NCBI GenBank assembly: GCA_034667685.1 | Contig: JAXDQU010000034.1 | Location: 31,022 to 95,021 of the forward strand | Direction: 5' to 3' | Length of the DNA: 64,000 bases | Source of the DNA: Thermoplasmata archaeon | GTDB lineage: Archaea > Thermoplasmatota > SW-10-69-26 > JACQPN01 > JAJPHT01 | In this document: positions 5,803-40,786 of the stretch, piece by piece | Numbering within the stretch: the stretch's first letter is position 1 | Layout: every line of letters begins with the position of its first letter | Translations under genes and position numbers: made by a program | The notes under the pieces: model-generated | Told to the model about the DNA's origin: nothing | Database searches by the model: none | The model's input: the letters and a program-made list of their open reading frames with translations, nothing else

Positions 5803-6036
5803 CTACGCGAGGGGCACGCAGTACTGGCACGGGTACGGAATCTCGTACTGGCAGTCGTAGTAGTAGTCGCCGTAGGACCAGGAGGTGCCGATGCAGGCGA
5901 GGCCGGGGCAGTGGGGGCCGGGCTGGACGGTGCCCGAGAGGACCGTGCACGTGCCGAACGCGTCCGCGGAGGGCGCGGCGGTCACGAAGACGGTGGTCGC
6001 AAGGAGAAGCATGGCGGCAAGGATGACGATGCGCAT
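5803..6036 (-). CDS. Small secreted Cys-rich peptide (6 Cys)
   Basis: Signal peptide MRIVILAAMLLLATTVFVTAAPSADA; mature part has 6 Cys and ends CVPLA. Confidence 0.7.
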   Translation of the reverse strand: MRIVILAAMLLLATTVFVTAAPSADAFGTCTVLSGTVQPGPHCPGLACIGTSWSYGDYYYDCQYEIPYPCQYCVPLA

Positions 6037-6118
6037 GGGGTTGTGCCCGCCGCCCGCACGCCGTTGCCGTGACAAGAAGTGTCGGAGGGCGCAGCCGCGT
6101 GGATGCGTGACCCCGAGA

Positions 6119-6179
6119 GAAACCCGACGACCCGCGGATCCGAGAACCCGAGGGGCGAGACGTCGGGTCGTCGGGTTTC
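6119..6179. repeat. Palindromic tandem-repeat element (8-mer CCCGACGA-like)
   Basis: gaaacccgacgacccg ... cgggtcgtcgggtttc, a 16-bp inverted repeat. Confidence 0.8.
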
Positions 6180-6187
6180 GGCCCCGG

Positions 6188-7159
6188 TCACACCCGCGCC
6201 AGCAGCTCGGCCACGCCCTGCTTGACCGTCGCGCCTTCGTAGAGGATGCGGTGGACGACGCGCGTGAGGGGAAGGTCCAGGTCCTCGTCCACGGCGTAGT
6301 CGTTGAACGCCTTGGTGGCGAAGACGCCCTCGGCGACCTGGCCGTGCATCTTCTCCTTGATCTGCTCGGCGGGCGTGCCGCGGCCCAGCTCGCGCCCGTA
6401 GAAGCGGTTGCGCGAGTGCTCGCTGGTGACGGTGGCCACGAGGTCGCCCAGCCCCGCGAGGCCGTAGACGGTGCGCTCGTCGGCGCCGAAGAGCGTGGCC
6501 AATTCCACCATCTCGTCGATGCCCAGCGTGACGAGGCACGCGGAGCAGTTGTCGCCCCAGCCGAGGCCCTCGGCCATGCCGCCGGCGAGCGCGACGACGT
6601 TCTTGTACGACCCGCACACCTCGGCGCCCACGAGGTCGCGGCGCGGGTAGGCCTTGAAGAAGCGCGTCGCGAAGAGATCGGCCCACTCCTGCGCGATCGC
6701 CATGTCGGGGTAGGCGAGCACGGCCGCGGTGGGCTGGCCGACGCTGACCTCCTCCGCGTGGTTGGGTCCCGTGATGCACGCGACGGGCTTGCCCGTCTCC
6801 TCGTGGATGACCTCGCTCATGCGCTTGTGCGTGCGCTGCTCCAGCCCCTTCGTCGCGGAGACGACGAGCGCCTCCGGGGCGAGGTGCTTGGCGTACACGC
6901 GAGCGAATTCCCGGGTCGCCTTGCTGGGGACCGCGTGGACCACGTGCCGCTCGCCCGCGAGCGCCTCCGGGAGGTCGTGCGTGACCGCGAGGCTGGGCGG
7001 GAAGGGGACGTTGCTGACGTAGTGCGGGTTGCGGCGCTCCTTGCGCATCGCGGCCACGAGCTGCTCGTCGCGCGCCCAGAGCGTGACGCGCTCTCCCTTG
7101 CTGGCGAGCAGGATGGCGAGCGTGGTGCCCCATGAGCCGGCACCGAGCACGGCGGGCAC
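6188..7159 (-). CDS. gpsA: NAD(P)H-dependent glycerol-3-phosphate dehydrogenase
   Basis: GAGSWGT, ATKGLE, GPNHAEEV, KNVVALAGG, GLGDL, SRNR motifs. Confidence 0.93.
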   Translation of the reverse strand: MPAVLGAGSWGTTLAILLASKGERVTLWARDEQLVAAMRKERRNPHYVSNVPFPPSLAVTHDLPEALAGERHVVHAVPSKATREFARVYAKHLAPEALVVSATKGLEQRTHKRMSEVIHEETGKPVACITGPNHAEEVSVGQPTAAVLAYPDMAIAQEWADLFATRFFKAYPRRDLVGAEVCGSYKNVVALAGGMAEGLGWGDNCSACLVTLGIDEMVELATLFGADERTVYGLAGLGDLVATVTSEHSRNRFYGRELGRGTPAEQIKEKMHGQVAEGVFATKAFNDYAVDEDLDLPLTRVVHRILYEGATVKQGVAELLARV

Positions 7160-7163
7160 GCGC

Positions 7164-7832
7164 CTACGCTCCCGGCTGCTTGTACTCGGGGTTCTGCGTG
7201 TACTCGGGCACGTACTCCTGCCCCGAGAGGTCGCGGATCGCCACCATGATGCGGTCGGTGACCTCGCGCGTGACCTTGCGGTCCTCCTCCTGGCCGTAGA
7301 ACTCGTCGAAGCGCATGGGCGCGCCGATGTGGATCGTGACCTTGTGCAGCGAGGGGACGCTCTTGCCCTTGGGCAGCACCTTGTCGGTGCCGATCATGCC
7401 CACGGGGATGACGGGGACGCGGGCCTTCAGCGCGAGCCGCGCCACGCCGGTCCTGCCCTTGTGGAGCTTGCCGTCCACGCTGCGCGTGCCCTCCGGGTAG
7501 ATGCCGAAGAGCTTGCCTTCGTCGAGGAGCTGGAGCGAGCGCGCGAACGCTTCGTTGTCCCCCTCGCCGCGCTTGAGCGGGATGACGCCCCACTGCTCGA
7601 AGAGCCAGCGCTGGACGGGCACGTCGAAGTGCTGCGCCTTGCTGATGAAGAAGATCTGCCGCGGCACGCACGCCGGCAGGAAGTAGTGGTCCGTGTAGGA
7701 GAGGTGGTTCGACGCGAGGATGGCGGCGCCGGCCTTGGGCACGTGGTGGAGCCCGGTGGCGTGGACCCGCCAGAGCCCGCGCAGCATGGGCCCGACGGTG
7801 AACTGCGACGCCTTGTAGAATCGCTCGCCCAT
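7164..7832 (-). CDS. plsC: 1-acyl-sn-glycerol-3-phosphate acyltransferase (PlsC family)
   Basis: NHLSYTD (HX4D), YPEGTRS, VPVIPV. Confidence 0.9.
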   Translation of the reverse strand: MGERFYKASQFTVGPMLRGLWRVHATGLHHVPKAGAAILASNHLSYTDHYFLPACVPRQIFFISKAQHFDVPVQRWLFEQWGVIPLKRGEGDNEAFARSLQLLDEGKLFGIYPEGTRSVDGKLHKGRTGVARLALKARVPVIPVGMIGTDKVLPKGKSVPSLHKVTIHIGAPMRFDEFYGQEEDRKVTREVTDRIMVAIRDLSGQEYVPEYTQNPEYKQPGA

Positions 7833-7880
7833 GACGCGGGGGCCAAGCCGGGCGGGGCAGGTAAGATTTTCGGCCAGCGC

Positions 7881-7955
7881 GGGGGGTTCGGGGGGCGCAG
7901 CCCCCCGACGTTTCGCACGCGCAAATCCTCAAGCCCAACCCGGGGCTGCGCCCCG
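7881..7955. repeat. G-rich REP-like hairpin motif plus a second mini-hairpin
   Basis: GGGGGGTTCGGGGGGC-GCA-GCCCCCCGA and cggggc-tgc-gccccg; resembles 22161-22190. Confidence 0.6.
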
Positions 7956-7957
7956 TC

Positions 7958-8380
7958 GTGGACGCGCCGCGCACCTTCACGCCCGAGGAAGCCCAGGCGC
8001 TCCTTCCGCAGGTCCGCCCCCTGCTGGCGCAGCTCCGTGACGCGTTCCACGGCTTCCGCTTCGCGCGCGAGCAGTGGACCGAGCTGCGCGAGGTGTACGG
8101 CGAGGACCCGGCCAGCGTCGAGCAGCACCCGGCCCACGACGAGGCCGTCCGCTGGCGCCGCGAGGCCGAAGCCCAGGGGCAGCGCGTGCAGGCGCTCGTG
8201 GACGAGCTCGACGCGCTCGGCGTCGAGGTCAAGGACCCCATGCTGGGCCTCATCGACTTCTACGCGCAGCGCGAGGGCGAGCTCGTCTACCTCTGCTTCC
8301 GCGACGACGAGGACGCGCTGCGCTACTGGCACCCGCTCTCCACCGGATTCGCGGGACGGCGGCCGCTCTCCGAGTTCTGA
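7958..8380 (+). CDS. DUF2203-family protein
   Basis: FTPEEAQALLP, GVEVKD, GLIDF, YLCF, YWH, GFAGRRP. Confidence 0.85.
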   Translation: MDAPRTFTPEEAQALLPQVRPLLAQLRDAFHGFRFAREQWTELREVYGEDPASVEQHPAHDEAVRWRREAEAQGQRVQALVDELDALGVEVKDPMLGLIDFYAQREGELVYLCFRDDEDALRYWHPLSTGFAGRRPLSEF

Positions 8381-8385
8381 CATCA

Positions 8386-8495
8386 AAGGGAAGACGGGAA
8401 GCGAGGGAAGAAAGGAACAAGGGAACAAGGGAACAAGGGAACAAGGGCCCCCTTGTTCCCTTCTTCCCTCGCTTCCCGTCTTCCCGTCTTCCCTT
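8386..8495. repeat. Palindromic tandem-repeat element (GGGAAGAC/GGGAACAA family)
   Basis: Purine-rich arm of gggaagac/gggaacaa units followed by the complementary ttcccgtc arm. Confidence 0.9.
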
Positions 8496-8551
8496 CGGAT
8501 TTCGATATCACGGCCACATGCCCGATAGCGGATGCGACGCGACGGGCTGAC

Positions 8552-8833
8552 ATGCAACGCTTCCTGGCGATCCACGCCATTCCCCTGGGCACGAACGAGG
8601 CCGCGTTCCGCCAGACCCTGGTGCGCGTGGCCGACGCGGCGGACAAGCTCGGCATCGACGTCAAGGAGACGCTCTACAACCTCGACCAGGGGAAGGCGTG
8701 GAGCGTCTTCGAGGCGGAGAACGAGGCGGACGTCGTCGAGGTGACGAGCCTCGCGGGCCTGCCGCGCCCCGAGGTGCTTCCCACGGAGATCGTCTACACC
8801 GAGCTGCTCAGCGAGCCGCGTCGGGCGCGCTGA
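8552..8833 (+). CDS. DUF4242-like small protein
   Basis: MQRFLAIH...GKAWSVFEAENEADV pattern; GC-biased codons. Confidence 0.6.
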   Translation: MQRFLAIHAIPLGTNEAAFRQTLVRVADAADKLGIDVKETLYNLDQGKAWSVFEAENEADVVEVTSLAGLPRPEVLPTEIVYTELLSEPRRAR

Positions 8834-8853
8834 ACGGGTCGGAAACGCGCGTC

Positions 8854-9072
8854 CTACGGCAGGCCGCACTCGGTCGAGGCGAGCCGGCAGGTCGCGTTGA
8901 TGGCGACCATACATGCGCCCAGGAGCCAAAGCACACACCTGCCGCCGTCGCCAAGCTGGCAGTTCTCCTGTACAAGGGCATCGCCGCACCTGGTGGCCAT
9001 TGCGCCCGGCGTGACGACGAGAACGGTGGCGGTCACGAGGGAGAGCATCAAGGCGGTCGCAACGAGTTTCAT
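8854..9072 (-). CDS. Small secreted Cys-rich peptide (6 Cys)
   Basis: Signal peptide MKLVATALMLSLVTATVLVVTPGAMA; 6 Cys, ends CGLP. Confidence 0.7.
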   Translation of the reverse strand: MKLVATALMLSLVTATVLVVTPGAMATRCGDALVQENCQLGDGGRCVLWLLGACMVAINATCRLASTECGLP

Positions 9073-9177
9073 GGGGGATCCTTCCGGCCAATGTGGGCCT
9101 GTTGCACGCACGAGCCTCGGGAGCATTATGTTACCTGCAGTGACGAGGTTGCACTTATCGAGGTTTCTTCGCCGGGA

Positions 9178-10080
9178 TCAAGGATCGTGGCTGGATAGGA
9201 TATCCTGGATGCGGCGGAGAAACGCCTCCGGCGCGTCCTCCTGCCAGAAGTGGCCCGCGTCGGGCGCCACGTGCTCGACGCTCTCCACGGCGAGGCCGCT
9301 CTCGCGCCAGCGCTCGGCCAGGCGCGGCGGCATCACGGGATCGCGGTCGGCCCAGAGCACGTGCACCGGCGCGTGGGAGAGGAGCGGGAAGCGCGCCTCG
9401 GCCTCGCGCAGCGTCGCCGCCTCGGGGTGGTCGGGCCCGTCGGGCACCATCTGCACGAAGCGCGCCGCCGCGACGCGCCCGCCTTTTTCGCGCATGGGCC
9501 AGGCGTAGGCGCGGCGAGCCTCGCGCGAGAGCGGCCTGCGCACGCCGCCGCGCATCGCGGTCGCGCGCACGAGGTCGAGCCGCACGCCCAATTGATAGCC
9601 CAGGGGCGAGGCGAAGAGCGCGTGCCAGCGCGTGAACGCGCGCTTGCGTTTGGGCGCGAAGGCCACCGTGTTGCAGACGAGGATGCGCTTCACGCGCTGC
9701 GGCTCGCGCGTCGCCCACGTCATGCCGATGGGCCCGCCCCAGTCGTGGAGCACGAGCGTCGCGTCGCGCACGTCGAGCGCCGCGAGGACCGCGCGCAGGT
9801 TCTCCGCGTGGCGCTCCAGCGAGTAGTAGCGCGGGTCGGTGGGCTTCTCCGAGAGGCCGAAGCCGGCGTGGTCGAGCACGACGACGCGGTGCCCCGCCGC
9901 CACGAGCGGCCCCACGAGCTTGCGGTAGAGGTAGCTCCACGTCGGGTTGCCGTGCAACAGCACGAGGGGCGCCGCGTCGCGCGGGCCCGCGTCGACGACC
10001 GAGAGCCGCACGCCCTCGACGGTGATATCACGGCGCGGCCAGGGCATCGCGGCGGCGATCTCCGGCGGGAGCTTGCGCAT
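9178..10080 (-). CDS. Alpha/beta hydrolase, haloalkane dehalogenase/OleB-like
   Basis: LLHGNPTWSYLYR, GFGLSEKP, HDWGG nucleophile motif, AGHFWQED. Confidence 0.88.
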   Translation of the reverse strand: MRKLPPEIAAAMPWPRRDITVEGVRLSVVDAGPRDAAPLVLLHGNPTWSYLYRKLVGPLVAAGHRVVVLDHAGFGLSEKPTDPRYYSLERHAENLRAVLAALDVRDATLVLHDWGGPIGMTWATREPQRVKRILVCNTVAFAPKRKRAFTRWHALFASPLGYQLGVRLDLVRATAMRGGVRRPLSREARRAYAWPMREKGGRVAAARFVQMVPDGPDHPEAATLREAEARFPLLSHAPVHVLWADRDPVMPPRLAERWRESGLAVESVEHVAPDAGHFWQEDAPEAFLRRIQDILSSHDP

Positions 10081-10161
10081 GCGCGTCCAACCGGCGCCTC
10101 GCAGAACCATGTTTCGGATCGGCGCTCCGGCTGGGGCTCCGCCCCAGCGTGGAGCGAGCGC

Positions 10162-10614
10162 CTACTGCACGTGCTGGGCGACGTCGTCGACCTCGCGGTC
10201 GCAGTAGCCGCAGCGCAGCTTGACCGGGTCGCGCGCGACGATGAGGAACTGCGCGCGCACCGGCTCGTGGTTCGTCACGCAGTTGGGGTTCGGGCACTTG
10301 ACGAGCCCGCTGACCTTCTCGGGCAGCTCGACGCGGTCCTTGCGCGCCACCTCATACTCGCGGATGATGTTGATCGTCGCGTTGGGCGCGATGAGCGCGA
10401 TCTTGTTGACCTCGTTCGCGTCCAGCTCGCGGTCCTCGATCTTGAGGATGTCCTTGCGGCCGCGGCTGCTGGGGACGTTCATCGCCGCGGTAATCGTGCT
10501 CGTGCTGCCCGGGCGCGGCAGGCCCAGGATGCGCATCACGGTGACGGCGCGCCCCGCGCTGATGTGGTCGATGACGGTGCCGTTGCGGATCGGCTGCACC
10601 TTCAATTCCTGCAC
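10162..10614 (-). CDS. pyrI: Aspartate carbamoyltransferase regulatory subunit
   Basis: IRNGTVIDHI, KDILKIE, CPNPNCVT, CGYC. Confidence 0.96.
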   Translation of the reverse strand: MQELKVQPIRNGTVIDHISAGRAVTVMRILGLPRPGSTSTITAAMNVPSSRGRKDILKIEDRELDANEVNKIALIAPNATINIIREYEVARKDRVELPEKVSGLVKCPNPNCVTNHEPVRAQFLIVARDPVKLRCGYCDREVDDVAQHVQ

Positions 10615-11550
10615 TCACGCCACCCCCTTGAGGCCGAGGACTTCCGCCAGGAGCGCCATGCGCACCGGCACGCCGAACGCGGCCTGCTCGAAGTACTTCG
10701 CCGCGGGCGTGTCGTCCACGGCCGGGTCGATCTCGCCCACGCGCGGGAGCGGGTGCATCACGACGATGCCCTTCTTGCCCTCCGCGAGCAGGTTGGGCGT
10801 TACGCGCAGCACGCCGCTGACCTTGCGGTACTCGTCCACGTCGGGGAAGCGCTCCTTCTGGATGCGCGTCATGTAGAGCACGTCCGTCTCGCCGATGACC
10901 TCCTCCAGGCGCGAGGCGAGCTTGTAGCGCGCACCCGCCGCGTCGAGCATCTGGCGCATGTCGTGCGGGATCTGCAGGCTCTCGGGCGCGACGAAGTTCA
11001 TCTCGACGCCGTACATCGCCAGCGCCTGCGCGAGCGAGTGCACCGTCCGGCCATACTTCAGGTCGCCCGCGATCGTCACCGTGTTGGGCCGGATCTCGCC
11101 CTTCGCCTTGCGGATCGTGAAGAGGTCCGTGAGCGTCTGCGTCGGGTGCTGCCCCGCGCCGTCGCCCGCATTGATCACCGGCACGCGCGAGTAGCGCGCC
11201 GCGAGCCGGGCCGCCCCCTCGCGCGGGTGGCGCAGCACCACGAGGTCGCTGTACGAGGCCACCATGCGGATCGTGTCCGCCAGCGTCTCGCCCTTCGTCG
11301 CGCTCGTGCTGCCCGGCTCCGCCACGCTGATGACGCTGCCGCCCAGGCGGTGCATCGCGCTCTCGAAGGAGAGCCGGGTCCGCGTCGAGGGCTCGAAGAA
11401 GAGCGTCGCCAGGATGCGCCCGCGCGCCGCGTCGAGGACGCGCTCGCCGCGCGAGGCGGGAAGGAGCCGCTCGGCCGCGTCGAGCACCCGGTCCATGTCG
11501 GCGACGGTCATGTCTCCGATGTGGGAGAGGTGGCGACCCTGGAAGCTCAT
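10615..11550 (-). CDS. pyrB: Aspartate carbamoyltransferase catalytic subunit
   Basis: FFEPSTRTRLSF, HPTQ, GDLKYGRTVHSL, MHPLPR. Confidence 0.97.
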   Translation of the reverse strand: MSFQGRHLSHIGDMTVADMDRVLDAAERLLPASRGERVLDAARGRILATLFFEPSTRTRLSFESAMHRLGGSVISVAEPGSTSATKGETLADTIRMVASYSDLVVLRHPREGAARLAARYSRVPVINAGDGAGQHPTQTLTDLFTIRKAKGEIRPNTVTIAGDLKYGRTVHSLAQALAMYGVEMNFVAPESLQIPHDMRQMLDAAGARYKLASRLEEVIGETDVLYMTRIQKERFPDVDEYRKVSGVLRVTPNLLAEGKKGIVVMHPLPRVGEIDPAVDDTPAAKYFEQAAFGVPVRMALLAEVLGLKGVA

Positions 11551-11572
11551 GGGGCGGCGAACCGGTGGACGC

Positions 11573-11586
11573 GATAAAGGCTTTGC
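11573..11586 (-). promoter_or_regulatory. Probable archaeal BRE/TATA box for pyrBI
   Basis: Minus strand reads caaagcctttatc about 25 nt upstream of the pyrB ATG, consistent with a leaderless transcript. Confidence 0.5.
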
Positions 11587-11595
11587 CAGGCGGGA

Positions 11596-11856
11596 TCACG
11601 GCGCGCAGGGATAGGCGCTGTCCAGGACGCGCAGCGTGCACGTGGGACCCGCGACCCCGTCGCCGCCGCGGTAGTAGACGACCTCGCCCGTGGGGCCCGC
11701 GCACGCGACGGTGGTGAACCAGTCGTCCACGCCGGTCGTCTGGCTGGCCGTGCAGGGTCCGATCGAGACGCCGTGCCCGGGGTCGAAGGCGGAGGCGAAG
11801 GGCGCGACGAGGACGAGGACAAAGGCGAGGAAGAGGGCGAGGGAGCTGCCGCGCAT
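11596..11856 (-). CDS. Small secreted Cys-containing peptide (4 Cys)
   Basis: Signal peptide MRGSSLALFLAFVLVLVAPFASA; 4 Cys, ends YPCAP. Confidence 0.7.
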   Translation of the reverse strand: MRGSSLALFLAFVLVLVAPFASAFDPGHGVSIGPCTASQTTGVDDWFTTVACAGPTGEVVYYRGGDGVAGPTCTLRVLDSAYPCAP

Positions 11857-11910
11857 CGCCGCGCGAGCGCGGGCCGGGCGCATCCGGCTTGCTGCCGCGC
11901 AACGCGCGGG

Positions 11911-12288
11911 CTACGCCGTGGGACCCGGACGCTCGCGCAGCTCGATGCGGTTGCCCCACGGATCCTGCGCGTAGAACCCGCGCGTGCCGACCTCGTGGGG
12001 CGCGTCGTAGTGCCGGAAGCGCGCCTTGTCCAGCGCCATGCGGATCGTCTCCGCCTTGTCCACGCGGAAGCGCGCCGACGGAGGCGGGTTGAGCACGGCG
12101 CGGAACCCCTCCTGCGGCAGGACCTTGAACAGGCCCTCCGCGGTCTGGAACCAGATCCCCTTCTCGCCGGGCGGCTTCATCGTCTCCTTCAGGCCGAGCA
12201 TTTGCCCGTAGAAGCGCCGCGCCTCCGCCTCGCCCCCGGGCGGCATGAGCACGGACTCGCCCATCTCCTTCGCGAGCACGCGGGGCAT
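11911..12288 (-). CDS. VOC/glyoxalase family protein
   Basis: EAEARRFYGQMLGL, GIWF, FYAQDPWGNRIEL. Confidence 0.85.
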   Translation of the reverse strand: MPRVLAKEMGESVLMPPGGEAEARRFYGQMLGLKETMKPPGEKGIWFQTAEGLFKVLPQEGFRAVLNPPPSARFRVDKAETIRMALDKARFRHYDAPHEVGTRGFYAQDPWGNRIELRERPGPTA

Positions 12289-12319
12289 CGCGCCGCGCAA
12301 CGCCGCATGCGCGGATGAA

Positions 12320-12382
12320 GGGCTCGGGGCTCTGGACTCAAGGCTCAGGGCTCCGGAGCCCGGAGTCCAGAGCCCCGAGCCC
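12320..12382. repeat. Palindromic tandem-repeat element (7-mer GGGCTCN)
   Basis: gggctcggggctctggactc ... gagtccagagccccgagccc, a 20-bp perfect inverted repeat. Confidence 0.88.
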
Positions 12383-12440
12383 CGCCGTTCGGAGGTCCGT
12401 CGCAGAACGCTCATGCGCAGGAACGGGGTCACGAAGCCCG

Positions 12441-13103
12441 ATGGCCCTGCTCGCGGCGCTGGCCGACTGGAGCCTCCAGGTCATGGCGAGCCTCGGCTAC
12501 GTCGGGCTCTTCCTCCTCATGACCGCGGAGAGCATGGTGCTCCCCGTCCCCAGCGAGGCCGTGCTCCCGTTCGCAGGCGCGCTCGCGGCGCGCGGCGAGA
12601 TGAGCCTTCTGCTGGCCTTCCTCGTCGCGCTGGCCGGCACCCTCGCGGGCTCGCTCCTCTCGTACGGCATGGGCGCGTGGGGCGTGCGCCCGCTGCTGGA
12701 GCGCTACGGCAAGTACGTCCTCGTCACGCCGCACCACATCGAGACGACGCACCGCTTCTTCGAGCGGAAGGGGGGCGCGTGGACGCTCTTCCTCGCGCGC
12801 TTCGTCCCCGTCGTGCGCCACCTCATCAGCATCCCCGCCGGCAGCGCGCGCATGCCCCTGGGCCGCTTCGTCCTCGCCACCGCGCTGGGCGGCGGCCTCT
12901 GGGACGCCTTCCTGCTCTACGTGGGCTATCTCCTCGGCAAGAACTGGGAGACCGTGACCGCGCTCGTGGACCAATGGAAGTGGGCGATCCTCGGCGCCGC
13001 CGTGATCGCGGCCGCCATCGCGGCGTGGATCGCGTGGCAGCGGCGCAAGCGCAACGGGACCGCGACCTCCTCGGGCGAGACCGGCCTCGCCCCCGGCCGG
13101 TGA
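12441..13103 (+). CDS. DedA-family membrane protein
   Basis: AESMVLPVPSE, ARFVPVVRHLISIPAG. Confidence 0.93.
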   Translation: MALLAALADWSLQVMASLGYVGLFLLMTAESMVLPVPSEAVLPFAGALAARGEMSLLLAFLVALAGTLAGSLLSYGMGAWGVRPLLERYGKYVLVTPHHIETTHRFFERKGGAWTLFLARFVPVVRHLISIPAGSARMPLGRFVLATALGGGLWDAFLLYVGYLLGKNWETVTALVDQWKWAILGAAVIAAAIAAWIAWQRRKRNGTATSSGETGLAPGR

Positions 13104-13105
13104 GG

Positions 13106-14635: not shown

Positions 14636-14706
14636 GCTGCGCGAAGGATCGGTGGAGGGAGATAAGAGTTAGCGTAACGGCCCAGGCGCGGCCGGGCCTG
14701 ACCGGC

Positions 14707-15144: not shown

Positions 15145-15248
15145 GGGCGGGCCGAAGCCGGCGGTCCCGTTTGGGTTTTTCGCCCACCCCCTGCGCGGGC
15201 GGGAACCTATTTGGTCGCGTCCGCTTGGTGGCCTGCGGAGGCGGGGCG

Positions 15249-28298: not shown

Positions 28299-29258
28299 AT
28301 GGATGCGATCCCGTTCGATGCGGCACGCCCGCGGCGCGCCGTGCTCGACGCCTGGAACGACGTCAAGGCGGGACTCGACTTCGTCGCGCACAACCTGCCC
28401 CGCGCCCACCGGGTCCTCTCCCGCGTGAATCCCTACCCGCGCCCCTGGCGCGCGGTGCGTCTCCCGGGGGCCGAGGGCGCCTCGCTCGCGGCCGTCTACG
28501 GCCCGGGCCGCCCGGGCGCCGGCGCGCTCCTGATCCTGCCGGGCACCTTCCAGACGAAGGACGACACGTCGCGCAAGCGCCGCGCCATCGGCCTCTGGCG
28601 CCGCTTCGGGCTGCACGTGCTCGTCCTCGACCAGCGCGGCTTCGGCGGCTCCTTCGACGCGCCGCCCACCGGGGGCTGGCTGGAGGCGGCCGACGCGCAC
28701 CTCGCCGCCGACTGGCTGCGCCACGAGAGCGGCGCCCCGCGCGTGACCCTCTGGGGCGAGAGCCTGGGCGGCGCCGTCGCGCTCCTGGCCGCCGCCCGCC
28801 CCGGCGCCGAGGCGCGCTTCGAGCGCGTCGTCGCGTGGAGCCCGTTCGCCGACCTCGCCGACGCCACCGCTGCGGCCGACCCGCGAAGCCCCCGCGGCCG
28901 CACGCTCCTGGGCCGCACGTACCGCTGGCTCCTGCGCGAGCGCACGCACGGCGAGGCGCAGGACTTCGGCGCCTTCCTCGCGCTGCGCGCCCACGCGCTG
29001 GGCCTCCCGCTCGAGGAGCTCGTCCGGCTCGGCTCGCCGCTGGCGCACGTGCGCGACCTCCGCGTGCCCGCGCTCGTGCTCCACGCCGAGGACGACCCCG
29101 TGGTGCCCGTCGCGCACGCGCGCAAGCTCGCCGACGCCCGCGCCCCGCGCCTCGACGTGCAGATCGTCCCGCGCGGCCGCCACCTCGACTTCGACCGCGA
29201 GGCGCCGCAATGGTACGCGCGGCTGACCCAAGCCCTGCTTGCATCCCCGACGGCCTGA
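28299..29258 (+). CDS. Alpha/beta hydrolase (YheT-like)
   Basis: DQRGFGGS, GESLGG, HAEDDPVV, GRH. Confidence 0.85.
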   Translation: MDAIPFDAARPRRAVLDAWNDVKAGLDFVAHNLPRAHRVLSRVNPYPRPWRAVRLPGAEGASLAAVYGPGRPGAGALLILPGTFQTKDDTSRKRRAIGLWRRFGLHVLVLDQRGFGGSFDAPPTGGWLEAADAHLAADWLRHESGAPRVTLWGESLGGAVALLAAARPGAEARFERVVAWSPFADLADATAAADPRSPRGRTLLGRTYRWLLRERTHGEAQDFGAFLALRAHALGLPLEELVRLGSPLAHVRDLRVPALVLHAEDDPVVPVAHARKLADARAPRLDVQIVPRGRHLDFDREAPQWYARLTQALLASPTA

Positions 29259-29268
29259 TGCCTCTCGC

Positions 29269-29562
29269 ATGAGGCGCCCCGCCTCGCCCCGCGATAGGGC
29301 GAGCGCCAACAGCACCCTCTGCGGGGGCAACGTCACCAACTGCGTGACCGTCGTCGAGGCCTACGCGCTCCACTGCGGGCTCCTCCCGGCCTACGACGTG
29401 GCGACGTGCTGGGTCAAGGACTCGGGCGTCTGGTACGACTTCGCCGTGAACGGCGTCGTGGTCGGCCTCGTGGGCTGCGGCGTCATCGGCGGCCCCGCGT
29501 GCCTTCAGCCCGCCTGCCAGCCCATCGACGCGGACTGGCCCCACTACTGCCCGCTGGCGTAG
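29269..29562 (+). CDS. Cys-rich peptide (8 Cys) apparently lacking a signal-peptide h-region
   Basis: MRRPASPRDRASA-NSTLC...YCPLA; strongly GC3-biased codons in the mature part. Confidence 0.6.
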   Translation: MRRPASPRDRASANSTLCGGNVTNCVTVVEAYALHCGLLPAYDVATCWVKDSGVWYDFAVNGVVVGLVGCGVIGGPACLQPACQPIDADWPHYCPLA

Positions 29563-29607
29563 GGCGAAGCGACACGTCCTTGGCGGGGCGCGCGCCATGC
29601 CCGGCGC

Positions 29608-31441: not shown

Positions 31442-31554
31442 GGGCGGCGCAACTCAGAGGCCCAGCTTGAGCATGACGAAGAGCGTCAGCTGCAGCAGCA
31501 GGAACCCGCCCAGCAGGCCGCCCACGATGGTGAGCGTCCACGCGAGCCAGGCCT

Positions 31555-33339: not shown

Positions 33340-33375
33340 GGCCGGGTCGCCAAGCGGAGGCACCGGATAAAAGCC

Positions 33376-33996: not shown

Positions 33997-34092
33997 CGCG
34001 TTCGAAACGCACGACGAGAAGAAGCCGGTTCCGGCCAGAATGACGACGTTCCGTCGCAAGGCTTAGGCAAGGAGCCGACGTTCCGTCGGAGC

Positions 34093-36717: not shown

Positions 36718-36801
36718 GCGCGCGCCACGCGGCGCTCCCGGCTTCAACGTTCGGGCCGCGTACCAGAACCGCAACGGCTCCCCGCGCCAAGCCGCCGCAT
36801 C

Positions 36802-37014
36802 ATGCGCGCGGGCGCGATCGCGTGGCGGATCGTCGAGCTGGCCGTTCCGGCCGCGCTGGTCATGCTCTCGGTCGCGCTCCTGGCCGCCGCCGTGGGCGCC
36901 ATGCTGCTCAACGCGCCCCGCGCGACGCAGTGGGCGCTCTTCGCCGAAGGGATGCTCTGCTGGGTCGGCGGCCTCGCGTGGGGCTGGCTCGCCAACGGCC
37001 GCCGCGCCTCGTGA
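36802..37014 (+). CDS. Small two-TM hypothetical protein
   Basis: Two hydrophobic helices; fills the gap divergent from trm1. Confidence 0.55.
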   Translation: MRAGAIAWRIVELAVPAALVMLSVALLAAAVGAMLLNAPRATQWALFAEGMLCWVGGLAWGWLANGRRAS

Positions 37015-37046
37015 GGTTCAAGAAGCCCGGGGCCCCTCCGCGCGCC

Positions 37047-37448
37047 ATGCCTCTGACGGAGCGCGAGGGCGTCGCCGGCATCGCCCTGCTCGCCATGTAC
37101 GCCGACGGCGTCATCATGGCCGAGGAGGACGACCTCATCCGCGAGCGCCTCCTGCAGTTCCCCTTCTTCCTCGAATTGGACGAGGACGCCCTGGGCCGCG
37201 TCCTGGCCGCCGTCGAGGCGCACGGCGAGAAGGTCGGCCCCGAGAAGCTCCTCGCCGAGTCCGCCGCGGCGGTGGGACCGCGCCTGCGCCCCACCGCGTA
37301 CCTGCTCGCCACCGAGGTCGTCATGGCCGACGGCGACTACGCGCCCGAGGAGGACGAGTACCTCCAGAAGCTGCGCAAGGCGCTCGCGCTCTCCGACGAG
37401 CAGGCGCGCAGCATCCACGAGGCGGTCGAGATCCGGGCGAGGCGCTAG
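37047..37448 (+). CDS. Tellurite-resistance TerB-family protein (second copy)
   Basis: AMYADGVIMAEE and EVVMADGDYAPEE. Confidence 0.85.
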   Translation: MPLTEREGVAGIALLAMYADGVIMAEEDDLIRERLLQFPFFLELDEDALGRVLAAVEAHGEKVGPEKLLAESAAAVGPRLRPTAYLLATEVVMADGDYAPEEDEYLQKLRKALALSDEQARSIHEAVEIRARR

Positions 37449-37867
37449 TCGTCCAGGCCGAGCGCGCGACCCGCCAGCTCGCGCTGGGCTGCGCGGCGCA
37501 AGGCGGCGTCGTGCGTCGCGAGCGTTCCCTCGGGCTCGCGCGCCGCCAGCTCCAGGTAGCTCGCGTCGTAGAACGTGAGGCCGTGCCGCGCGGCGAGCCG
37601 GGCGGTCGCGGCGCGCGCGGCGGCGTCGGTCGGGACCAGCTCGATCCCCTCCAGCATCGCCTCGACGAGCGCCGCGCGCTTCTGCGGCGTGGCCGCGAAC
37701 AGCGCGGCTCTGCGCCCGTGGACGACGTGGCCGATCTCCCAGGCGAGAAGCGCGGGCGCGCGGCAGGCGAATCGCTCGTGGAGCGCGCTGAGCGCGTCGA
37801 ACCGGGGGCCGGGCGCGGCGCCGTCGAGCACGACGCTCGCGTCCAGGACGAGGACGTCAGGCGTCAT
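37445..37867 (-). CDS. vapC: VapC-type PIN-domain toxin
   Basis: VLDASV, WEI, YDASYLELA, LATHDAAL. Confidence 0.88.
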   Translation of the reverse strand: MTPDVLVLDASVVLDGAAPGPRFDALSALHERFACRAPALLAWEIGHVVHGRRAALFAATPQKRAALVEAMLEGIELVPTDAAARAATARLAARHGLTFYDASYLELAAREPEGTLATHDAALRRAAQRELAGRALGLDD

Positions 37868-38063
37868 CGCGGATCTCCCGGACCGCGGCGGCGCCGTCGA
37901 TCGCGGGGGCGTTGAGCTTCCGGAGCTTCGCGCGGGCCTGGCGCGCCTTCAGGCGGCGCACCTCGTCCTCGAAGGCCCGCTTCGCGACCTCGTTGGGGTT
38001 GAGCCCGGCCGACGCGACGTAGGCGACGACGTCGTCGTCCTCGCGGAACTGGACCCGTGTCAC
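37857..38063 (-). CDS. Probable VapB-like antitoxin
   Basis: 68 aa overlapping the PIN gene; GLNPNEVAKRAFEDEVRR and AVREIRD. Confidence 0.7.
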   Translation of the reverse strand: MTRVQFREDDDVVAYVASAGLNPNEVAKRAFEDEVRRLKARQARAKLRKLNAPAIDGAAAVREIRDDA

Positions 38064-38088
38064 AGGCGTGTATCCACGCGCGGCACCA

Positions 38089-39684
38089 TCAAGGCTGCGG
38101 CGGCTTCGTGTTCCCCGCGTACGTGCGGCTCTGCTCGCGCAGGAACTGCGTGAGGTACCAGGGTCCGCCCGCGCCGCGGTCGGTGGTGGCGCTGAACTTC
38201 CAGCCGCCGAACGACTGGCCGCCGACCATCGCGCCGGTGCTCGTGCCGCGGTCGCGGTTGGCGTAGACGACGCCCGCCTCGATGCGGTCGAAGAACCACT
38301 GCACCTCGTTGGCGTCGTTGGAGACCACGCCGAACGTCAGGCCATAGTCGGCCGCGTTGACCTCGCGCACGACCTGCTCGTTGTCGTGGAACTTGCCCAC
38401 GGCCACGAAGGGCACGAAGTACTCCTGGCGGAACGCCTCGTGGTCGAGCGGCAATCCCGTGACGATCGTGGGCTGCACGAAGTTGCCCTTGGCGAACGCG
38501 CCCTCCTTGATGACGTGGCCGCCCACGAGGAGCTTGCCGCCCGCTTTCGTCGCGGCGGCGACCGCGGCCTCGAACGTCTCGACGGCGCCCTTGTTGATGA
38601 CGGGGCCGAGGTCGGCCTCCTTCTTCCAGGGCATCTCGACGCGCAGGGCGCGCGCCTTCTCGCCGAGCTTCGCGAGGAACGCGTCGTGGATCGACTCGTG
38701 CACGTACACGCGGCTCGTGGCGCTGCACTTCTGGCCCCCGAATCCGAACGCGCTCTTGACGACGCCCGTCGCGGCCTTGTCGAGGTCCGCGTTCTTCGTG
38801 ACGACGGTGGCGTTCTTGCCGCCCATCTCGGCGATGTAGGGGCGCGGGCGCCGGCCGACGAACGACGGGTAGTTGCGCATGCCCACGTCGCGGCTCCCGG
38901 TGAAGACGAGACCGCCCACGTCCGGATGGTCGATGAGCGGCTGGCCCACCTCGCGCCCGCCGCCCGTGACCAGCGAGAGCGCGTCCTTGGGCACGCCCGC
39001 CTCGTGGAGGATGCGGACCAGCTCGTAGCTCGTCCAGGGCGTGTCGGACGCGGGCTTGAGCACGACGGCGTTGCCGGTGATCAGCGCGCCGGTCGTCATG
39101 CCGGTGGGGATGGCGACGGGGAAGTTGAACGGGCCGACGACGGCGAAGACGCCCCAGGGGCGCATGACGGACACGCACGTCTCGTCGGGGAACGGCTTCC
39201 CCATCGGGACCACGTACCCCTTGTGCTCGCGCATCTGCCACGCGTAGTAATGGAGGAAGTCGATGGCCTCGTCCACGTCGTAGTACGCCTCGACGCGGTT
39301 CTTGCCGTTCTCCACGCACATGAGCGCCGCGAGCATCGGGCGCTCGCGGACCATGATCTGCGCCGCGCGGTCGAAGATCGCCGCGCGCTTCTCCCAGCCC
39401 AGCGCCTCCCAGGCGGGCTGCGCGGCCTTCGCGGCCTTCACGGCGGCATCGACGTCGGCGGCCGTGCCCTTCGGGAAGCGCGCGAGGGCCTCGCCCGTCG
39501 AAGGGTCCAGGTCGTCGAACGTCGCCGCGTGCCGCACCTCCTTGCCCGCGACGAGCATCGGAAGCGCCTCGCCCGCGCGCTTCCGGAGCTGCGCGACGGC
39601 CTCCTCGAACTCGCGGTCCAGCTCCGCGCCCTTGCCCGCCTGCGCCACGCGGAAAACGGTGTTCTGGTTCTCGAACCCGGCCAT
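38089..39684 (-). CDS. Aldehyde dehydrogenase (P5C dehydrogenase-like)
   Basis: PFNFP, FTGS, EMGGKN, GQKCSA, YGLT, SFGGWK. Confidence 0.92.
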   Translation of the reverse strand: MAGFENQNTVFRVAQAGKGAELDREFEEAVAQLRKRAGEALPMLVAGKEVRHAATFDDLDPSTGEALARFPKGTAADVDAAVKAAKAAQPAWEALGWEKRAAIFDRAAQIMVRERPMLAALMCVENGKNRVEAYYDVDEAIDFLHYYAWQMREHKGYVVPMGKPFPDETCVSVMRPWGVFAVVGPFNFPVAIPTGMTTGALITGNAVVLKPASDTPWTSYELVRILHEAGVPKDALSLVTGGGREVGQPLIDHPDVGGLVFTGSRDVGMRNYPSFVGRRPRPYIAEMGGKNATVVTKNADLDKAATGVVKSAFGFGGQKCSATSRVYVHESIHDAFLAKLGEKARALRVEMPWKKEADLGPVINKGAVETFEAAVAAATKAGGKLLVGGHVIKEGAFAKGNFVQPTIVTGLPLDHEAFRQEYFVPFVAVGKFHDNEQVVREVNAADYGLTFGVVSNDANEVQWFFDRIEAGVVYANRDRGTSTGAMVGGQSFGGWKFSATTDRGAGGPWYLTQFLREQSRTYAGNTKPPQP

Positions 39685-39737
39685 GCGCGTCCATTCGGCG
39701 CCTCTCCATAAAGGGTTCCTCCTGCCTGGCGCCACCG

Positions 39738-39817
39738 CCCGAGCCCGATTCCGATTCCTCTTCCGAGCCCGGCGGGCGCAAGCAGGGCTCGGAAGAGGAA
39801 TCGGAATCGGGCTCGGG
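39738..39817. repeat. Palindromic tandem-repeat element (6-mer TTCCGA family)
   Basis: 33-bp perfect inverted repeat at 39738-39770/39785-39817. Confidence 0.93.
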
Positions 39818-39850
39818 TTTGGCCGCGAGGCCTGCGCGCGATTCGGCGAG

Positions 39851-39857
39851 TATATAG
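39851..39857 (+). promoter_or_regulatory. TATA box of the NTPase gene
   Basis: TATATAG about 30-36 nt upstream of the ATG at 39887. Confidence 0.55.
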
Positions 39858-39886
39858 CGGCAGGCCTCCGTCTCCGGGCCTGATAT

Positions 39887-40435
39887 ATGGTGAAGGAGCT
39901 GAAGATCGGCATCACCGGTCTGCCCAGCGTCGGCAAGACGAGGACCCTTCTCAAGATCGTCGAGAAGCTCGAAGAGAAGGAGGTCATCGTCGGCGGCATG
40001 GTCACCGAGTCCATCGACGAAGGGACCAACCGCCTCGGATTCAAGATCATCAACTGGCTGACCAAGGAAGAGGGCATCCTTGCGCACGTCGACTTCACCG
40101 ACAGCAAGGTCAAGGTCAGCGGCTTCGGCGTCGACATGAACATCCTCGACGGCCTCGGCGTCACCGCCATCGAGCAGGCCATCCGCGAGGCCGAGGTCAT
40201 CGTGATCGACGAGGTGGGCAAGATGGAGATGGAGAGCCCCGCGTTCTGCGACGCGGTCAAGAAGGCGCTCGACTCCAGCAAGCCCATGATCATGACGCTC
40301 CACAAGAAGTCGCGGAATCCGTTGCTCCAGGACATCCGGCGCCGCGACGACATCCGCATCCTGGAAGTCACCAAGATCAACCGGAACCTGCTTCCGTACA
40401 AGATCGAGAAGCTGCTCGAAGGCGAAAACATCTGA
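39887..40435 (+). CDS. THEP1-family nucleoside-triphosphatase
   Basis: ITGLPSVGKT, VIDEVGKME, TKINRN. Confidence 0.93.
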   Translation: MVKELKIGITGLPSVGKTRTLLKIVEKLEEKEVIVGGMVTESIDEGTNRLGFKIINWLTKEEGILAHVDFTDSKVKVSGFGVDMNILDGLGVTAIEQAIREAEVIVIDEVGKMEMESPAFCDAVKKALDSSKPMIMTLHKKSRNPLLQDIRRRDDIRILEVTKINRNLLPYKIEKLLEGENI

Positions 40436-40552
40436 CAAACTCGCGCTTCGCGCTCGTTTGTCAGCCGCAACCGACGTGGCCCCTCCGGGGCCACCGCAGA
40501 CCTCGGCTCGCTGCGCTCGCCGAGGTCGAGCGACACCCCGCCTTCGGCGGGG
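40432..40552. repeat. Cluster of four stem-loops (REP-like)
   Basis: ctgacaaac/gtttgtcag, gtggcccc/ggggccac, gacctcggc/gccgaggtc, ccccgcc/ggcgggg. Confidence 0.8.
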
Positions 40553-40579
40553 ATCCCTCCATCCTGATGGCCGCTCCCT

Positions 40580-40786
40580 TTACTCGGTGCAGTAGATTGG
40601 GACCTTCGGGTCGACCTTCTGCACGATGCTGCCGACGATGAAGCAGGCGTTGGTGCAGCCGCCGTCGGGGTAGTCGATCTCGCAGTTGGCGCTGGCGGTG
40701 CCCACGGGTCCGAGGGCCGCGGGGGCGAGCGTGATGGCGAGGCTGGCGAGGACGATCAGCGTGACGAGGTGCATGCGCGTGGGCAT
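40580..40786 (-). CDS. Small secreted Cys-containing peptide (4 Cys)
   Basis: Signal peptide ending GTASA; NCEIDYPDGGCTNAC...YCTE. Confidence 0.72.
   Translation of the reverse strand: MPTRMHLVTLIVLASLAITLAPAALGPVGTASANCEIDYPDGGCTNACFIVGSIVQKVDPKVPIYCTE

Follow-up and report, generated by a model that had tools for sequence, protein, structure and literature searches.

The five small cysteine-rich ORFs in the window (the whole 64,000-nucleotide stretch of DNA analysed here) are genuine genes. They represent a sample from a set of about 100 small proteins specific to the lineage of their source, a soil Thermoplasmata archaeon that is uncultured and rich in GC. The reading that best accounts for the data, to which we assign a probability of roughly 0.7, is that these are Sec-exported, disulfide-stapled miniproteins whose genes turn over fast. 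New here are the genome-wide count of such genes, the test of their Cys parity, their expansion at the level of the genus and the missing oxidase.

The original prediction ascribed a common architecture to the five ORFs, and the sequences bear this out. All five lie at the predicted positions with the predicted lengths, Cys counts and A-x-A sites at -3/-1 (Table 1), every Cys is downstream of the A-x-A site, and the last Cys lies 4, 3, 2, 3 and 2 residues from the C-terminus in #1 to #5, respectively. A hydrophobic core precedes the site in #1, #2, #3 and #5 and is absent from #4, again as predicted. By our own heuristic and by eye, four of the five thus qualify as class 1 substrates of Sec and signal peptidase I (a positively charged n-region, then some 8-18 hydrophobic residues as a core, with positions -3 and -1 occupied by small residues), while #4 does not. 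As for the operational class of small, Cys-rich proteins that are secreted, #1, #3 and #5 fall within the genome-wide set described below, #2 has the features of the class but scores under the codon cut-off, and #4 is left out for lack of a signal peptide.

Table 1. Positions and features of the five ORFs in the window.
ORF	Feature	Position	Strand	Basis
#1	precursor, 77 aa, six Cys	5803..6036	-	ORF, counts, codon score
#1	signal peptide, 26 aa, cleavage ADA/F	5959-6036	-	own heuristic
#1	mature six-Cys miniprotein, 51 aa, net charge -3	5806-5958	-	
#2	precursor, 72 aa, six Cys	8854..9072	-	ORF, weaker coding signal
#2	signal peptide, 26 aa, cleavage AMA/T	8995-9072	-	own heuristic
#2	mature part, 46 aa, six Cys, net charge -1	8857-8994	-	
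#3	precursor, 86 aa, four Cys	11596..11856	-	ORF, codon score
#3	signal peptide, 23 aa, cleavage ASA/F	11788-11856	-	own heuristic
#3	mature part, 63 aa, four Cys, net charge -4	11599-11787	-	
#4	ORF, 97 aa, eight Cys; net charge of mature part -5	29269..29562	+	
#4	N-terminus, ASA site kept, no hydrophobic core	29269-29307	+	
#5	precursor, 68 aa, four Cys	40580..40786	-	ORF, codon score
#5	signal peptide, 33 aa, cleavage ASA/N	40688-40786	-	own heuristic
#5	mature part, 35 aa, four Cys, net charge -3	40583-40687	-	

The claim that these ORFs belong to a large genome-wide repertoire held up. In the 3.48-Mb genome (G000), 102 genes encode proteins of at most 120 aa that have a signal peptide, lack a transmembrane segment and carry at least 4 Cys once matured, as counted with a home-made codon log-odds gene call (cut-off 8) and a home-made signal-peptide heuristic. 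The heuristic is over-inclusive: it picks out 813 of 3648 genes, among them some for cytoplasmic enzymes (GpsA, for example). By these criteria there is one such gene per 34 kb, and the extrapolated density of about one per 13 kb is a property of the window rather than of the genome. Once the signal peptide is removed, the proteins have a median length of 55 aa and 4-12 Cys. Pro, Gly, Thr and Tyr are abundant in these mature parts, which contain only 0.8% Lys and 2.0% Arg (less than 3% together), with a net charge that is negative in 95, neutral in 4 and positive in 3; the 270 large exported proteins of the same genome contain 1.8% Lys and 3.7% Arg. In agreement with the proposed mutual dissimilarity of these proteins, clustering by sequence splits the 102 genes into 70 groups, of which 58 have a single member. 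The accompanying statement that the genes sit singly is true of the five ORFs but does not extend to the genome, where 30 of the 102 adjoin another gene of this kind.

The predicted bias of this set towards even numbers of Cys is pronounced: 99 of the 102 proteins have an even and 3 an odd number of Cys. Across all 189 small signal-peptide proteins, the mature Cys counts (given as Cys:proteins) were 0:48, 1:13, 2:21, 3:5, 4:55, 5:3, 6:30, 8:10, 10:3 and 12:1; in small proteins lacking a signal peptide they were 0:355, 1:114, 2:45, 3:23, 4:55, 5:4, 6:6, 7:5, 8:5, 9:1 and 11:1. Among large signal-peptide proteins, 396 have an even number (2 or more) and 81 an odd number (3 or more). The CxxC motif is absent from 89 of the 102 miniproteins. 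Of the 77 small Cys-rich proteins that lack a signal peptide, by contrast, 64 carry it at least once and 13 do not; within the five ORFs it occurs only in #1, as a single motif. In addition, 78 of the 102 have their last Cys no more than 6 residues from the C-terminus, a number that averaged 53 +/- 5 in 2000 shuffles and never exceeded 67. Parity, scarcity of CxxC and the near-terminal last Cys together favour disulfides over metal sites, from which we infer that the miniproteins are disulfide-stapled rather than metal-binding. Small Cys proteins of the zinc-ribbon type were considered as a candidate identity and rejected, given that 89 of the 102 lack even a single CxxC.

How these disulfides would be formed is puzzling, since neither VKOR nor DsbB was found in the genus. 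The original prediction proposed looking for a DsbA/VKOR-type oxidase; the genome has three DSBA-family proteins, all of which lack signal peptides. Related lineages retain VKOR. In bacteria that form extracytoplasmic disulfides, the even-Cys signature accompanies DsbB or VKOR, and an earlier bacterial survey reportedly made use of this signature in exported proteins. The archaeal genome resembles organisms with extracytoplasmic disulfides in that the even-Cys bias is seen in exported and not in cytoplasmic proteins, and differs from such bacteria in showing it without DsbB or VKOR. That the signature had already been used in bacteria is evident from portions of a published study (PMC2823432).

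The repertoire is a lineage-specific expansion in this genus. Density within the genus is 25-29 genes per Mb (29 per Mb in G000; 5 genes in 200 kb of contig C15 of the congener G003), compared with a single gene in 806 kb from five other Thermoplasmatota genomes (G007, 0 in 210 kb; G009, 0 in 136 kb; G015, 1 in 180 kb; G017, 0 in 100 kb; G024, 0 in 180 kb), all counted with one script; the related genomes were covered by samples of 100-270 kb and are kin and not independent. The same-family and same-class genomes sampled thus have almost no such genes. Turnover is also visible within the genus, as G000 contains no match for 3 of 12 such genes from G003. The proposal that these genes diversify rapidly is supported in part. 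Values of dN/dS against the congener (0.65, 0.43 and 1.0) exceed the median of 37 neighbouring genes (0.30) and there is gain and loss at syntenic sites, but this does not amount to positive selection, as all these ratios are inflated by an extreme GC3 (about 0.95) that limits dS to about 0.3-0.6.

Examination of the individual loci illustrates this pattern. Relatives in other genomes or metagenomes were found for all five ORFs, and for four of the five there are known relatives in which every shared Cys is kept. The positional orthologues of #1, #3 (66-68% identity) and #5 (47-60% identity) in G003 have kept both the signal peptide and its A-x-A site and have lost no Cys, with all four present for #3 as for #5. 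ORF #1 is the sole member among the five of a six-Cys family, whose members combine a signal peptide with a downstream domain of about 45-55 aa in which six Cys align; in the alignments of this family (A1 and A2; 46 rows) five Cys are invariant and the sixth occurs in no fewer than 90% of rows. A profile search found 6 copies in G000 and hits in 6 of the 21 genomes examined from the class; among 1.84 billion proteins it picked up 31 cluster representatives, with one judged false. The syntenic site in G003 has three tandem copies. ORF #3, located 45 nt upstream of pyrB, has two tandem paralogues on contig C40 of G003. ORF #5 is also matched in part in G002 and has a relative at 91% (P0040), and next to its G003 orthologue two extra small Cys-rich genes are inserted, neither of which is matched in G000.

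ORF #2 is absent from G003, where its two flanking genes abut. Its mature part aligns with two secreted proteins from a genome of the same order (G010), with four Cys in register (z of about 9; none of 1000 shuffles reached the score), and the gene is spanned, with no difference, by contigs from an independent soil metagenome. ORF #4 has only MRRPASPRDR ahead of its ASA site, and the hydrolase gene upstream stops 10 nt short of its ATG, which leaves no space for a signal peptide. No relatives of #4 were found in 40 related genomes, and the database relatives are P0037 (83%), P0038 (60%) and P0039 (58%); the latter two have canonical signal peptides and, on comparison of the sequences by eye rather than by alignment, all eight Cys. 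ORF #4 probably descends from a secreted family as a copy whose 5' end was lost. The lack of a signal core places export of #4 itself in doubt, and it may be a non-exported protein.

Database searches are consistent with the earlier statement that no such archaeal family had been described, in that we found no Pfam or NCBIfam family and no description in the literature. None of 25 miniproteins tested reached the Pfam cut-off; at E<=1 Pfam gave no family for #1, #2 and #5 and sub-threshold, unrelated matches only for #3 and #4. A scan of all five ORFs against NCBIfam likewise produced none above the cut-off, and the halocin C8 model (TIGR04449, which the library is assumed to hold) was not among the matches at E<=1 for any of them. 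For the best-populated family, that of #1, AlphaFold models are of low confidence (pLDDT 49.5 and 54.6), and a Foldseek search with a low-confidence model gave 0 matches.

Several other explanations for these observations have to be weighed. Since long spurious ORFs abound in high-GC genomes, the five could be chance gene-like ORFs in DNA of 71% GC, the more so as #2 scores 6.5 against the codon cut-off of 8 and the region appears in no RNA run. This explanation is scarcely credible: GC3 in the stated frames is 0.95, 0.84, 0.94, 0.98 and 0.96 for #1 to #5 (GC2, 0.48-0.60), the codon log-odds gene call recovers four of the five with the predicted start codons (scores of 47, 46 and 49 for #1, #3 and #5), orthologues retain Cys and signal peptide while other residues vary, and random ORFs would not be expected to yield a parity bias of 99:3. 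These features, together with the relatives found for all five, largely refute it. An alternative that accepts the proteins as exported is that they are parts of the cell envelope or matrix, namely small structural or protective proteins or binding modules retained at the surface. The whole exported proteome is likewise acidic, poor in Lys and Arg and even in Cys, so the miniproteins may be the smallest members of a broader surface proteome, and three database relatives of #1 have two or three domain copies per chain. Yet the five ORFs show no C-terminal anchor, transmembrane segment or sorting signal, and structural parts are usually conserved, whereas these genes are patchy within one genus and nearly absent from the sampled genomes of the same family and class; we consider a role of this kind unlikely.

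Functions in killing or in communication were suggested by the original prediction, and they share the attraction of explaining small, exported, lineage-specific sequences. Secreted, disulfide-rich, fast-changing proteins could be defensin-like or archaeocin-type antimicrobial peptides directed at competitors. Positive charge is not obligatory for killing peptides, and #1 lies 51 nt directly 5' of genes for an ABC-2 ATPase and permease, an arrangement that is kept in G003 and recalls peptide-plus-immunity loci. This linkage is not general, however: 2 of the 102 genes have an ABC ATPase, as defined by motif, no more than 2.5 kb away, compared with 134 of 3623 other genes, an ABC-like ORF occurs at only 1 of 8 other #1-family loci examined (L006), and no recurring transporter or immunity-like gene was found near the miniprotein genes. 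Moreover, neither halocin C8 nor any other model was matched, and the proteins are net negative in 5 of 5 and 95 of 102 cases with very little Lys and Arg, making an antimicrobial function rather improbable; the defensin-like label, in particular, finds no support in the charge of all five or in Pfam, where no defensin family matched. A set of pheromone or quorum-type signals detected by membrane receptors would fit the many stand-alone genes whose start codons are preceded, at about 26-30 nt upstream, by the AT-rich peak that other genes have as well. We regard signalling as very unlikely, in that about 100 distinct signals in a 3.5-Mb genome are implausible, the mature parts are big for pheromones, no upstream motif hinting at a regulon is shared across the 102 genes (the best 6-mer occurs in 9), and nothing encountered indicated a receptor or a dedicated exporter for the pheromone-like system once envisaged.

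Among known systems, defensins and knottins, which are cystine-stabilised miniproteins found in eukaryotes, are similar in mature size (35-63 aa here), in having 4-8 Cys and in having their termini pinned by Cys. Defensins are cationic, whereas the miniproteins are net negative and match no Pfam defensin or knottin family. Class II bacteriocins and peptide pheromones differ in that the miniproteins have Sec-type A-x-A leaders and not double-glycine ones, and are not regularly accompanied by an ABC exporter or immunity gene. Halocin C8 and its immunity protein are both released from one larger precursor, whereas the miniprotein precursors consist of a plain signal peptide and mature part. Like the haloarchaeal halocin C8 and archaeocins, the miniproteins are archaeal, exported, Cys-rich, stable small proteins, and the ABC-2 neighbour of #1 is a further likeness, as passages of a preprint place ABC transporter genes in halocin C8 loci and name the domain model TIGR04449 (bioRxiv 10.64898/2026.07.27.741052).

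A close parallel is with the small secreted cysteine-rich proteins of fungi, an operational class for which sections of three papers require small size, a signal peptide and more than one pair of Cys (PMC7170778, PMC8596622, PMC5557327). As far as those sections describe it, the fungal class shares with the archaeal set a size of about 100 or more genes per genome, many unrelated families, lineage-specific expansion and mostly unassigned functions. The archaeal set belongs to another domain of life, has no detectable sequence relationship to the fungal proteins, is uniformly acidic and is known without a host or partner organism. What the two sets have in common is their architecture and the way they evolve, and not a shared ancestry.

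Taken together, we favour Sec-exported, disulfide-stapled miniproteins with fast gene turnover. The precursor would be directed to export by a Sec-type signal peptide, predicted from sequence to be cut at the A-x-A site, and the released part would fold outside the cell into a putative compact domain with two to six disulfides that usually fix both chain ends, as suggested by the parity, conservation and placement of Cys. The genes, apparently unlinked to processing, export or immunity genes, would come and go fast through tandem duplication, divergence, insertion and loss. Our most likely guess for function, argued by analogy, is that the miniproteins serve as stable extracellular molecules of the binding or inhibitor type directed toward other soil organisms or substrates; membrane-attacking cationic peptides are unlikely. 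A more speculative extension, which we put forward only tentatively, is an effector-like arsenal evolved in this one genus, in which about 3% of genes would encode acid-stable, disulfide-knotted miniproteins, quickly gained and lost, that enter the soil and bind or disable foreign molecules, with an oxidation route in place of the VKOR retained by relatives. Suggested targets are the enzymes, surfaces and viruses of other soil organisms.

Because these genes are short, lineage-restricted and unannotated, a sizeable share of the secretome is currently invisible to standard annotation. The organism also presents a biochemical puzzle, with roughly 500 even-Cys exported proteins in the absence of both known membrane oxidases. 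If the arsenal were real, it would be the first archaeal counterpart of the cysteine-rich peptide libraries of fungi, plants or venoms, and would point to a novel disulfide-forming system. The dealings of archaea with their soil neighbours are almost unstudied, and about 100 exported miniproteins, encoded by genes short enough for synthesis, expression and screening for binding, inhibition or killing, would offer a concrete and testable entry point.

All five of the small even-Cys ORFs in the window (#1 to #5) are genuine genes. Each was found in the sequence where the original prediction had placed it and with the start codon claimed for it, and GC3 in these frames is 0.95, 0.84, 0.94, 0.98 and 0.96 for #1 to #5, respectively (GC2 0.48–0.60). 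This is a useful coding test because spurious ORFs are plentiful in the source Thermoplasmata genome, G000. A codon log-odds model trained on 734 long high-GC3 ORFs, used in a greedy gene call that yields 3648 genes and covers 87% of the genome, picks four of the five with the same starts as originally proposed; #2 scores 6.5, below the cut-off of 8, and sits in an otherwise empty gap of 345 nt. The hydrophobic signal peptide attributed to four of the ORFs was also recovered, with a core preceding the cleavage site in #1, #2, #3 and #5, and only MRRPASPRDR in #4.

Locations of the five ORFs and of associated genes (window coordinates unless a genome and contig are named; charge is the net charge of the mature part)
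Feature	Location	Strand	Description
#1	5803-6036	-	77 aa; ADA; 6 mature Cys; last Cys 4 from C-terminus; charge -3
#2	8854-9072	-	72 aa; AMA; 6 mature Cys; last Cys 3 from C-terminus; charge -1
#3	11596-11856	-	86 aa; ASA; 4 mature Cys; last Cys 2 from C-terminus; charge -4
#4	29269-29562	+	97 aa; ASA; 8 mature Cys; last Cys 3 from C-terminus; charge -5
#5	40580-40786	-	68 aa; ASA; 4 mature Cys; last Cys 2 from C-terminus; charge -3
#1 paralogue (alignment A1)	G000:C101:515-760
#1 paralogues (alignment A1)	G000:C63:14177-15186		four tandem genes
ABC-2 ATPase and permease	3534-5751	-	next to #1
Adjacent gene pair	6188-7832	-	by eye, bacterial-type glycerol-3-phosphate dehydrogenase and acyltransferase
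Region around the #4 start	29200-29320		signal core missing; alpha/beta-hydrolase-like gene ends 10 nt before the #4 ATG
Extra secreted Cys-rich genes, locus L010	G003:C8:27488-30685, at about 1903-2502		two genes, 99 and 82 aa
Thioredoxin-like and DUF4395 genes	G000:C110:8680-9542		outside the window

The G000 assembly comprises 3.48 Mb in 124 contigs (71% GC, completeness reported as 99%), and the window corresponds to G000:C34:31022-95021. The closest named records to the PyrB protein of the window are nearly all archaeal MAGs, at no more than 57–58% identity, and the best of them include Thermoplasmata, other Thermoplasmatota and "Methanobacteriota". DNA of the window is present in 7 soil or rhizosphere metagenome runs, which together with the PyrB matches is consistent with an origin in soil Thermoplasmata. 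There are no RNA runs among the 7 that contain window positions 5000-12500. Pieces from an independent soil metagenome are identical to the window over #2, #3 and, by a pair of pieces that overlap, #1 as far as 6032, showing that this DNA occurs elsewhere; we draw nothing further from them.

The genome-wide repertoire was delimited with a home-made heuristic that calls a signal peptide when the start is charged, 8–18 hydrophobic residues follow without a charge, positions -3 and -1 hold small residues and the rest of the protein has no membrane segment. In all, 813 of the 3648 proteins are flagged, but the absolute numbers are rough because the heuristic over-flags, some cytoplasmic enzymes being among the proteins selected. 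The 189 flagged proteins of at most 120 aa include 48, 13, 21, 5, 55, 3, 30, 10, 3 and 1 with 0, 1, 2, 3, 4, 5, 6, 8, 10 and 12 mature Cys, respectively. For the 102 with at least four, the count is even in 99 and odd in 3, so that the even-Cys bias proposed on the basis of five ORFs holds across the genome. Exported proteins in general are biased in this way, the large ones included (396 even versus 81 odd). Among small proteins without a signal peptide, Cys counts fall steadily except for a peak at four. It is a zinc-ribbon-type peak, with CxxC in 64 of the 77 small Cys-rich proteins of this group and at least two such motifs in 44. A zinc-ribbon-like pattern was also considered for the 102 and rejected, as 89 of them lack any CxxC.

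The families represented in this set are diverse and unannotated, and their products are acidic. Mature parts have a median of 55 residues, contain 9.3% Cys, 0.8% Lys and 2.0% Arg, and are net negative in 95 of the 102; the 270 large exported proteins are also acidic and poor in Lys and Arg, though less extremely so. Cysteines lie close to both ends of the chain, the first at most 7 residues past the cleavage site in 80 proteins and the last at most 6 residues from the C-terminus in 78, compared with a mean of 53 ± 5 and a maximum of 67 in 2000 shuffles. Clustering by blastp gives 70 clusters; 58 contain a single protein and the largest contains 15. The Pfam cut-off was reached by none of 25 proteins (the five ORFs and 20 chosen for clusters and singletons) and the NCBIfam cut-off by none of the five. 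The genes had been described as lying singly; most of the 102 are indeed dispersed, but 30 adjoin another gene of the set. There is no enrichment within 3 kb of contig ends (29/102 versus 884/3546, p = 0.24). C-terminal P-L-A, L-P or P-L tails occur in 23 of the 102 and in 184 of 3546 other proteins, and are seen in #1 (CVPLA, 5803-5817) and #4 (CPLA, 29548-29562); they could be a signal or mere composition.

Each of the five ORFs was searched in G000 and 40 related genomes. Matches were found in 6 of these 41 genomes for #1, in 5 for #5 (two of them marginal) and in 2 each for #2 and #3, and #4 matched only itself and one marginal sequence with a stop codon. An ESM Atlas search gave no usable match for #3 and scores of 0.75–0.77 for #1, within the range given for shuffled proteins, and a related-locus search with #1 alone as query found no locus. 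In the congener G003, contig C8 shares synteny with a large part of the window and carries positional orthologues of #1 (as three tandem copies), #3 and #5, all of which retain the signal peptide, the A-x-A site and every Cys although 30–50% of the other residues have changed. The gene pair at 6188-7832 is 88% and 92% identical to its G003 orthologues. As both genes that flank #2 abut in G003, #2 is absent from the syntenic place there. Its mature part can nevertheless be aligned, four Cys in register, to two secreted proteins from G010, a genome of the same order but another family (z of about 9; the observed score was reached by 0 of 1000 shuffles). Both the number and the position of the cysteines are conserved.

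The one ORF without a signal core, #4, has four database relatives. Two of them (P0038 and P0039) have a canonical N-terminal signal peptide with ASA as its last residues, and both, as judged by eye, share all eight Cys of #4; in addition, the hydrolase-like gene upstream stops 10 nt before the #4 ATG. Taken together, these features make #4 look like a copy deprived of its signal-peptide core, the production and export of which are putative. The loss could reflect a rearrangement that truncated the gene, or else a fault in the assembly.

The six-Cys family of #1 is rare and patchy, occurring in 6 of 21 genomes and 4 of 14 genera of the class. In a 22-row alignment (A1), #1, its G000 paralogues and relatives from G003, G005, G012, G018 and G020 form one family. 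A second alignment of 46 rows (A2), to which database members were added, has five invariant Cys and a sixth in at least 90% of rows; it omits six duplicates of existing rows, the multi-domain proteins P0005, P0017 and P0024, and P0028, which is a repeat protein, lacks a signal peptide and was judged a false hit. When compared with 1.84 billion cluster representatives, the A1 profile retrieved 31 proteins at E ≤0.001, nearly all 69–97 aa long, the domain beginning at about residue 27, and a word-based search returned 4 out of 5.8 billion clusters, one being the window's own protein. In P0005, P0017 and P0024 the six-Cys domain is present two or three times per chain, with Pro-rich linkers between the copies, which indicates that the domain is usable as a repeat module. 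AlphaFold2 models of mature #1 had pLDDT values of 49.5 (22 aligned sequences) and 54.6 (46) and contained only a weak three-stranded sheet; Foldseek found no PDB match to the low-confidence model at E ≤10.

The repertoire is expanded in the genus of G000. An identical script found 5 genes of this kind in 200 kb of G003 (contig C15) and 12 in 269 kb when C8 was included, a figure that is biased because C8 was picked for holding hits. Outside the genus there was none in G007 (same family, 210 kb), G009 (same order, 136 kb), G017 (same class, 100 kb) or G024 (same phylum, 180 kb) and one in G015 (same class, 180 kb), which makes a single gene over 806 kb, versus 29 per Mb in G000, though the samples are small and the genomes mutually related. 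Large exported proteins have even-to-odd ratios of 27:2 in G007, 14:1 in G009, 12:4 in G015 and 7:0 in G017, and the bias is absent from G024 (2:5, few proteins). Extracellular disulfides therefore seem to be class-wide, whereas the expansion of small proteins is not.

Comparison of the 12 G003 genes with G000 gave 7 clear matches, 2 marginal ones and 3 without a match. Two of the last three directly adjoin the orthologue of #5: at locus L010 of G003, these extra genes lie between that orthologue and a TfoX-like gene, a spacing of 51 nt in G000, and neither matches anything in G000. Nei-Gojobori dN/dS relative to G003 is 0.65 for #1, 0.43 for #3 and 1.0 for #5 (42 codons only), compared with a median of 0.30 (range 0.11–0.96) for 37 neighbouring genes, but a GC3 of about 0.95 caps dS at roughly 0.3–0.6, so these ratios merely rank genes. 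The calculation took in 40 of the 72 window proteins, the remainder having no hit, less than 60% coverage or less than 45% identity. Among paralogues dN/dS is 0.85–3.9, with values above 1 among those of C63; these ratios were not accepted as a sign of positive selection, since dS saturates near 0.3–0.6 under codon bias.

Downstream of #1, after 51 nt, come the genes of an ABC-2 transporter (ATPase and permease) and then a MutY-like gene, and the arrangement of peptide gene and transporter is kept in G003, where the peptide gene is present in three copies. A general link to ABC transporters was rejected. It exists for #1 and its orthologues in G003, but across the genome just 2 of the 102 genes, versus 134 of 3623 others, have a motif-defined ABC ATPase no more than 2.5 kb away. 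An AT-rich peak 26–30 nt upstream of the start is common to the 102 and other genes (0.39 against 0.44); a search for a motif common to the regions upstream of the 102 gave none that was convincing.

Neither VKOR nor DsbB was found in G000. VKOR occurs in 11 of 21 class genomes but in none of the 5 of the genus (G000 to G004), and the VKOR of G005, a member of the same family, gave a best E of 0.175 when used as query in G000, G003, G006 and G007; DsbB occurs in 2 of 21 class genomes and is absent from 4 of the 5 in the genus. G000 encodes three DSBA-family proteins, all without a signal peptide. A search for DsbD gave only a sub-threshold hit, and one for Erv/ALR gave no signal in any control genome and so carries no weight. 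Candidate extracytoplasmic thioredoxin-fold proteins are a TlpA-like lipoprotein (G000:C102:26085-26585), a membrane-anchored glutaredoxin-like protein and a membrane-anchored thioredoxin-like protein whose gene overlaps by 4 nt that of a DUF4395 membrane protein (120 bits), which has a CxxC in its final hydrophobic segment. This last pair was rejected as a substitute for VKOR because the two distributions are not complementary (both in 5 class genomes, DUF4395 only in 5, VKOR only in 6, neither in 5); the charge pattern past the anchor suggests that the thioredoxin domain faces the cytoplasm. Strong even-Cys export in a genus without VKOR suggests a novel disulfide route or spontaneous oxidation.

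A full-text literature search found no paper on such a repertoire in archaea. The main text of PMC9287336, on a high-GC soil order of Thermoplasmatota, mentions neither cysteine, disulfides, secreted nor small proteins, and a 2026 archaeocin preprint (bioRxiv 10.64898/2026.07.27.741052) covers halocins alone. Of the functional analogies raised initially, that with defensins fails on charge, #1 to #5 all being net negative, as well as in every family test, and that with pheromones has size alone in its favour. We infer that the proteins are exported through Sec and cleaved at A-x-A, that disulfides staple both ends of the chain and that the products are released from the cell. As to function, our guess is that outside the cell these proteins serve as stable binding or inhibitory molecules in interactions with other organisms; a role in the producer's own envelope is a serious rival.
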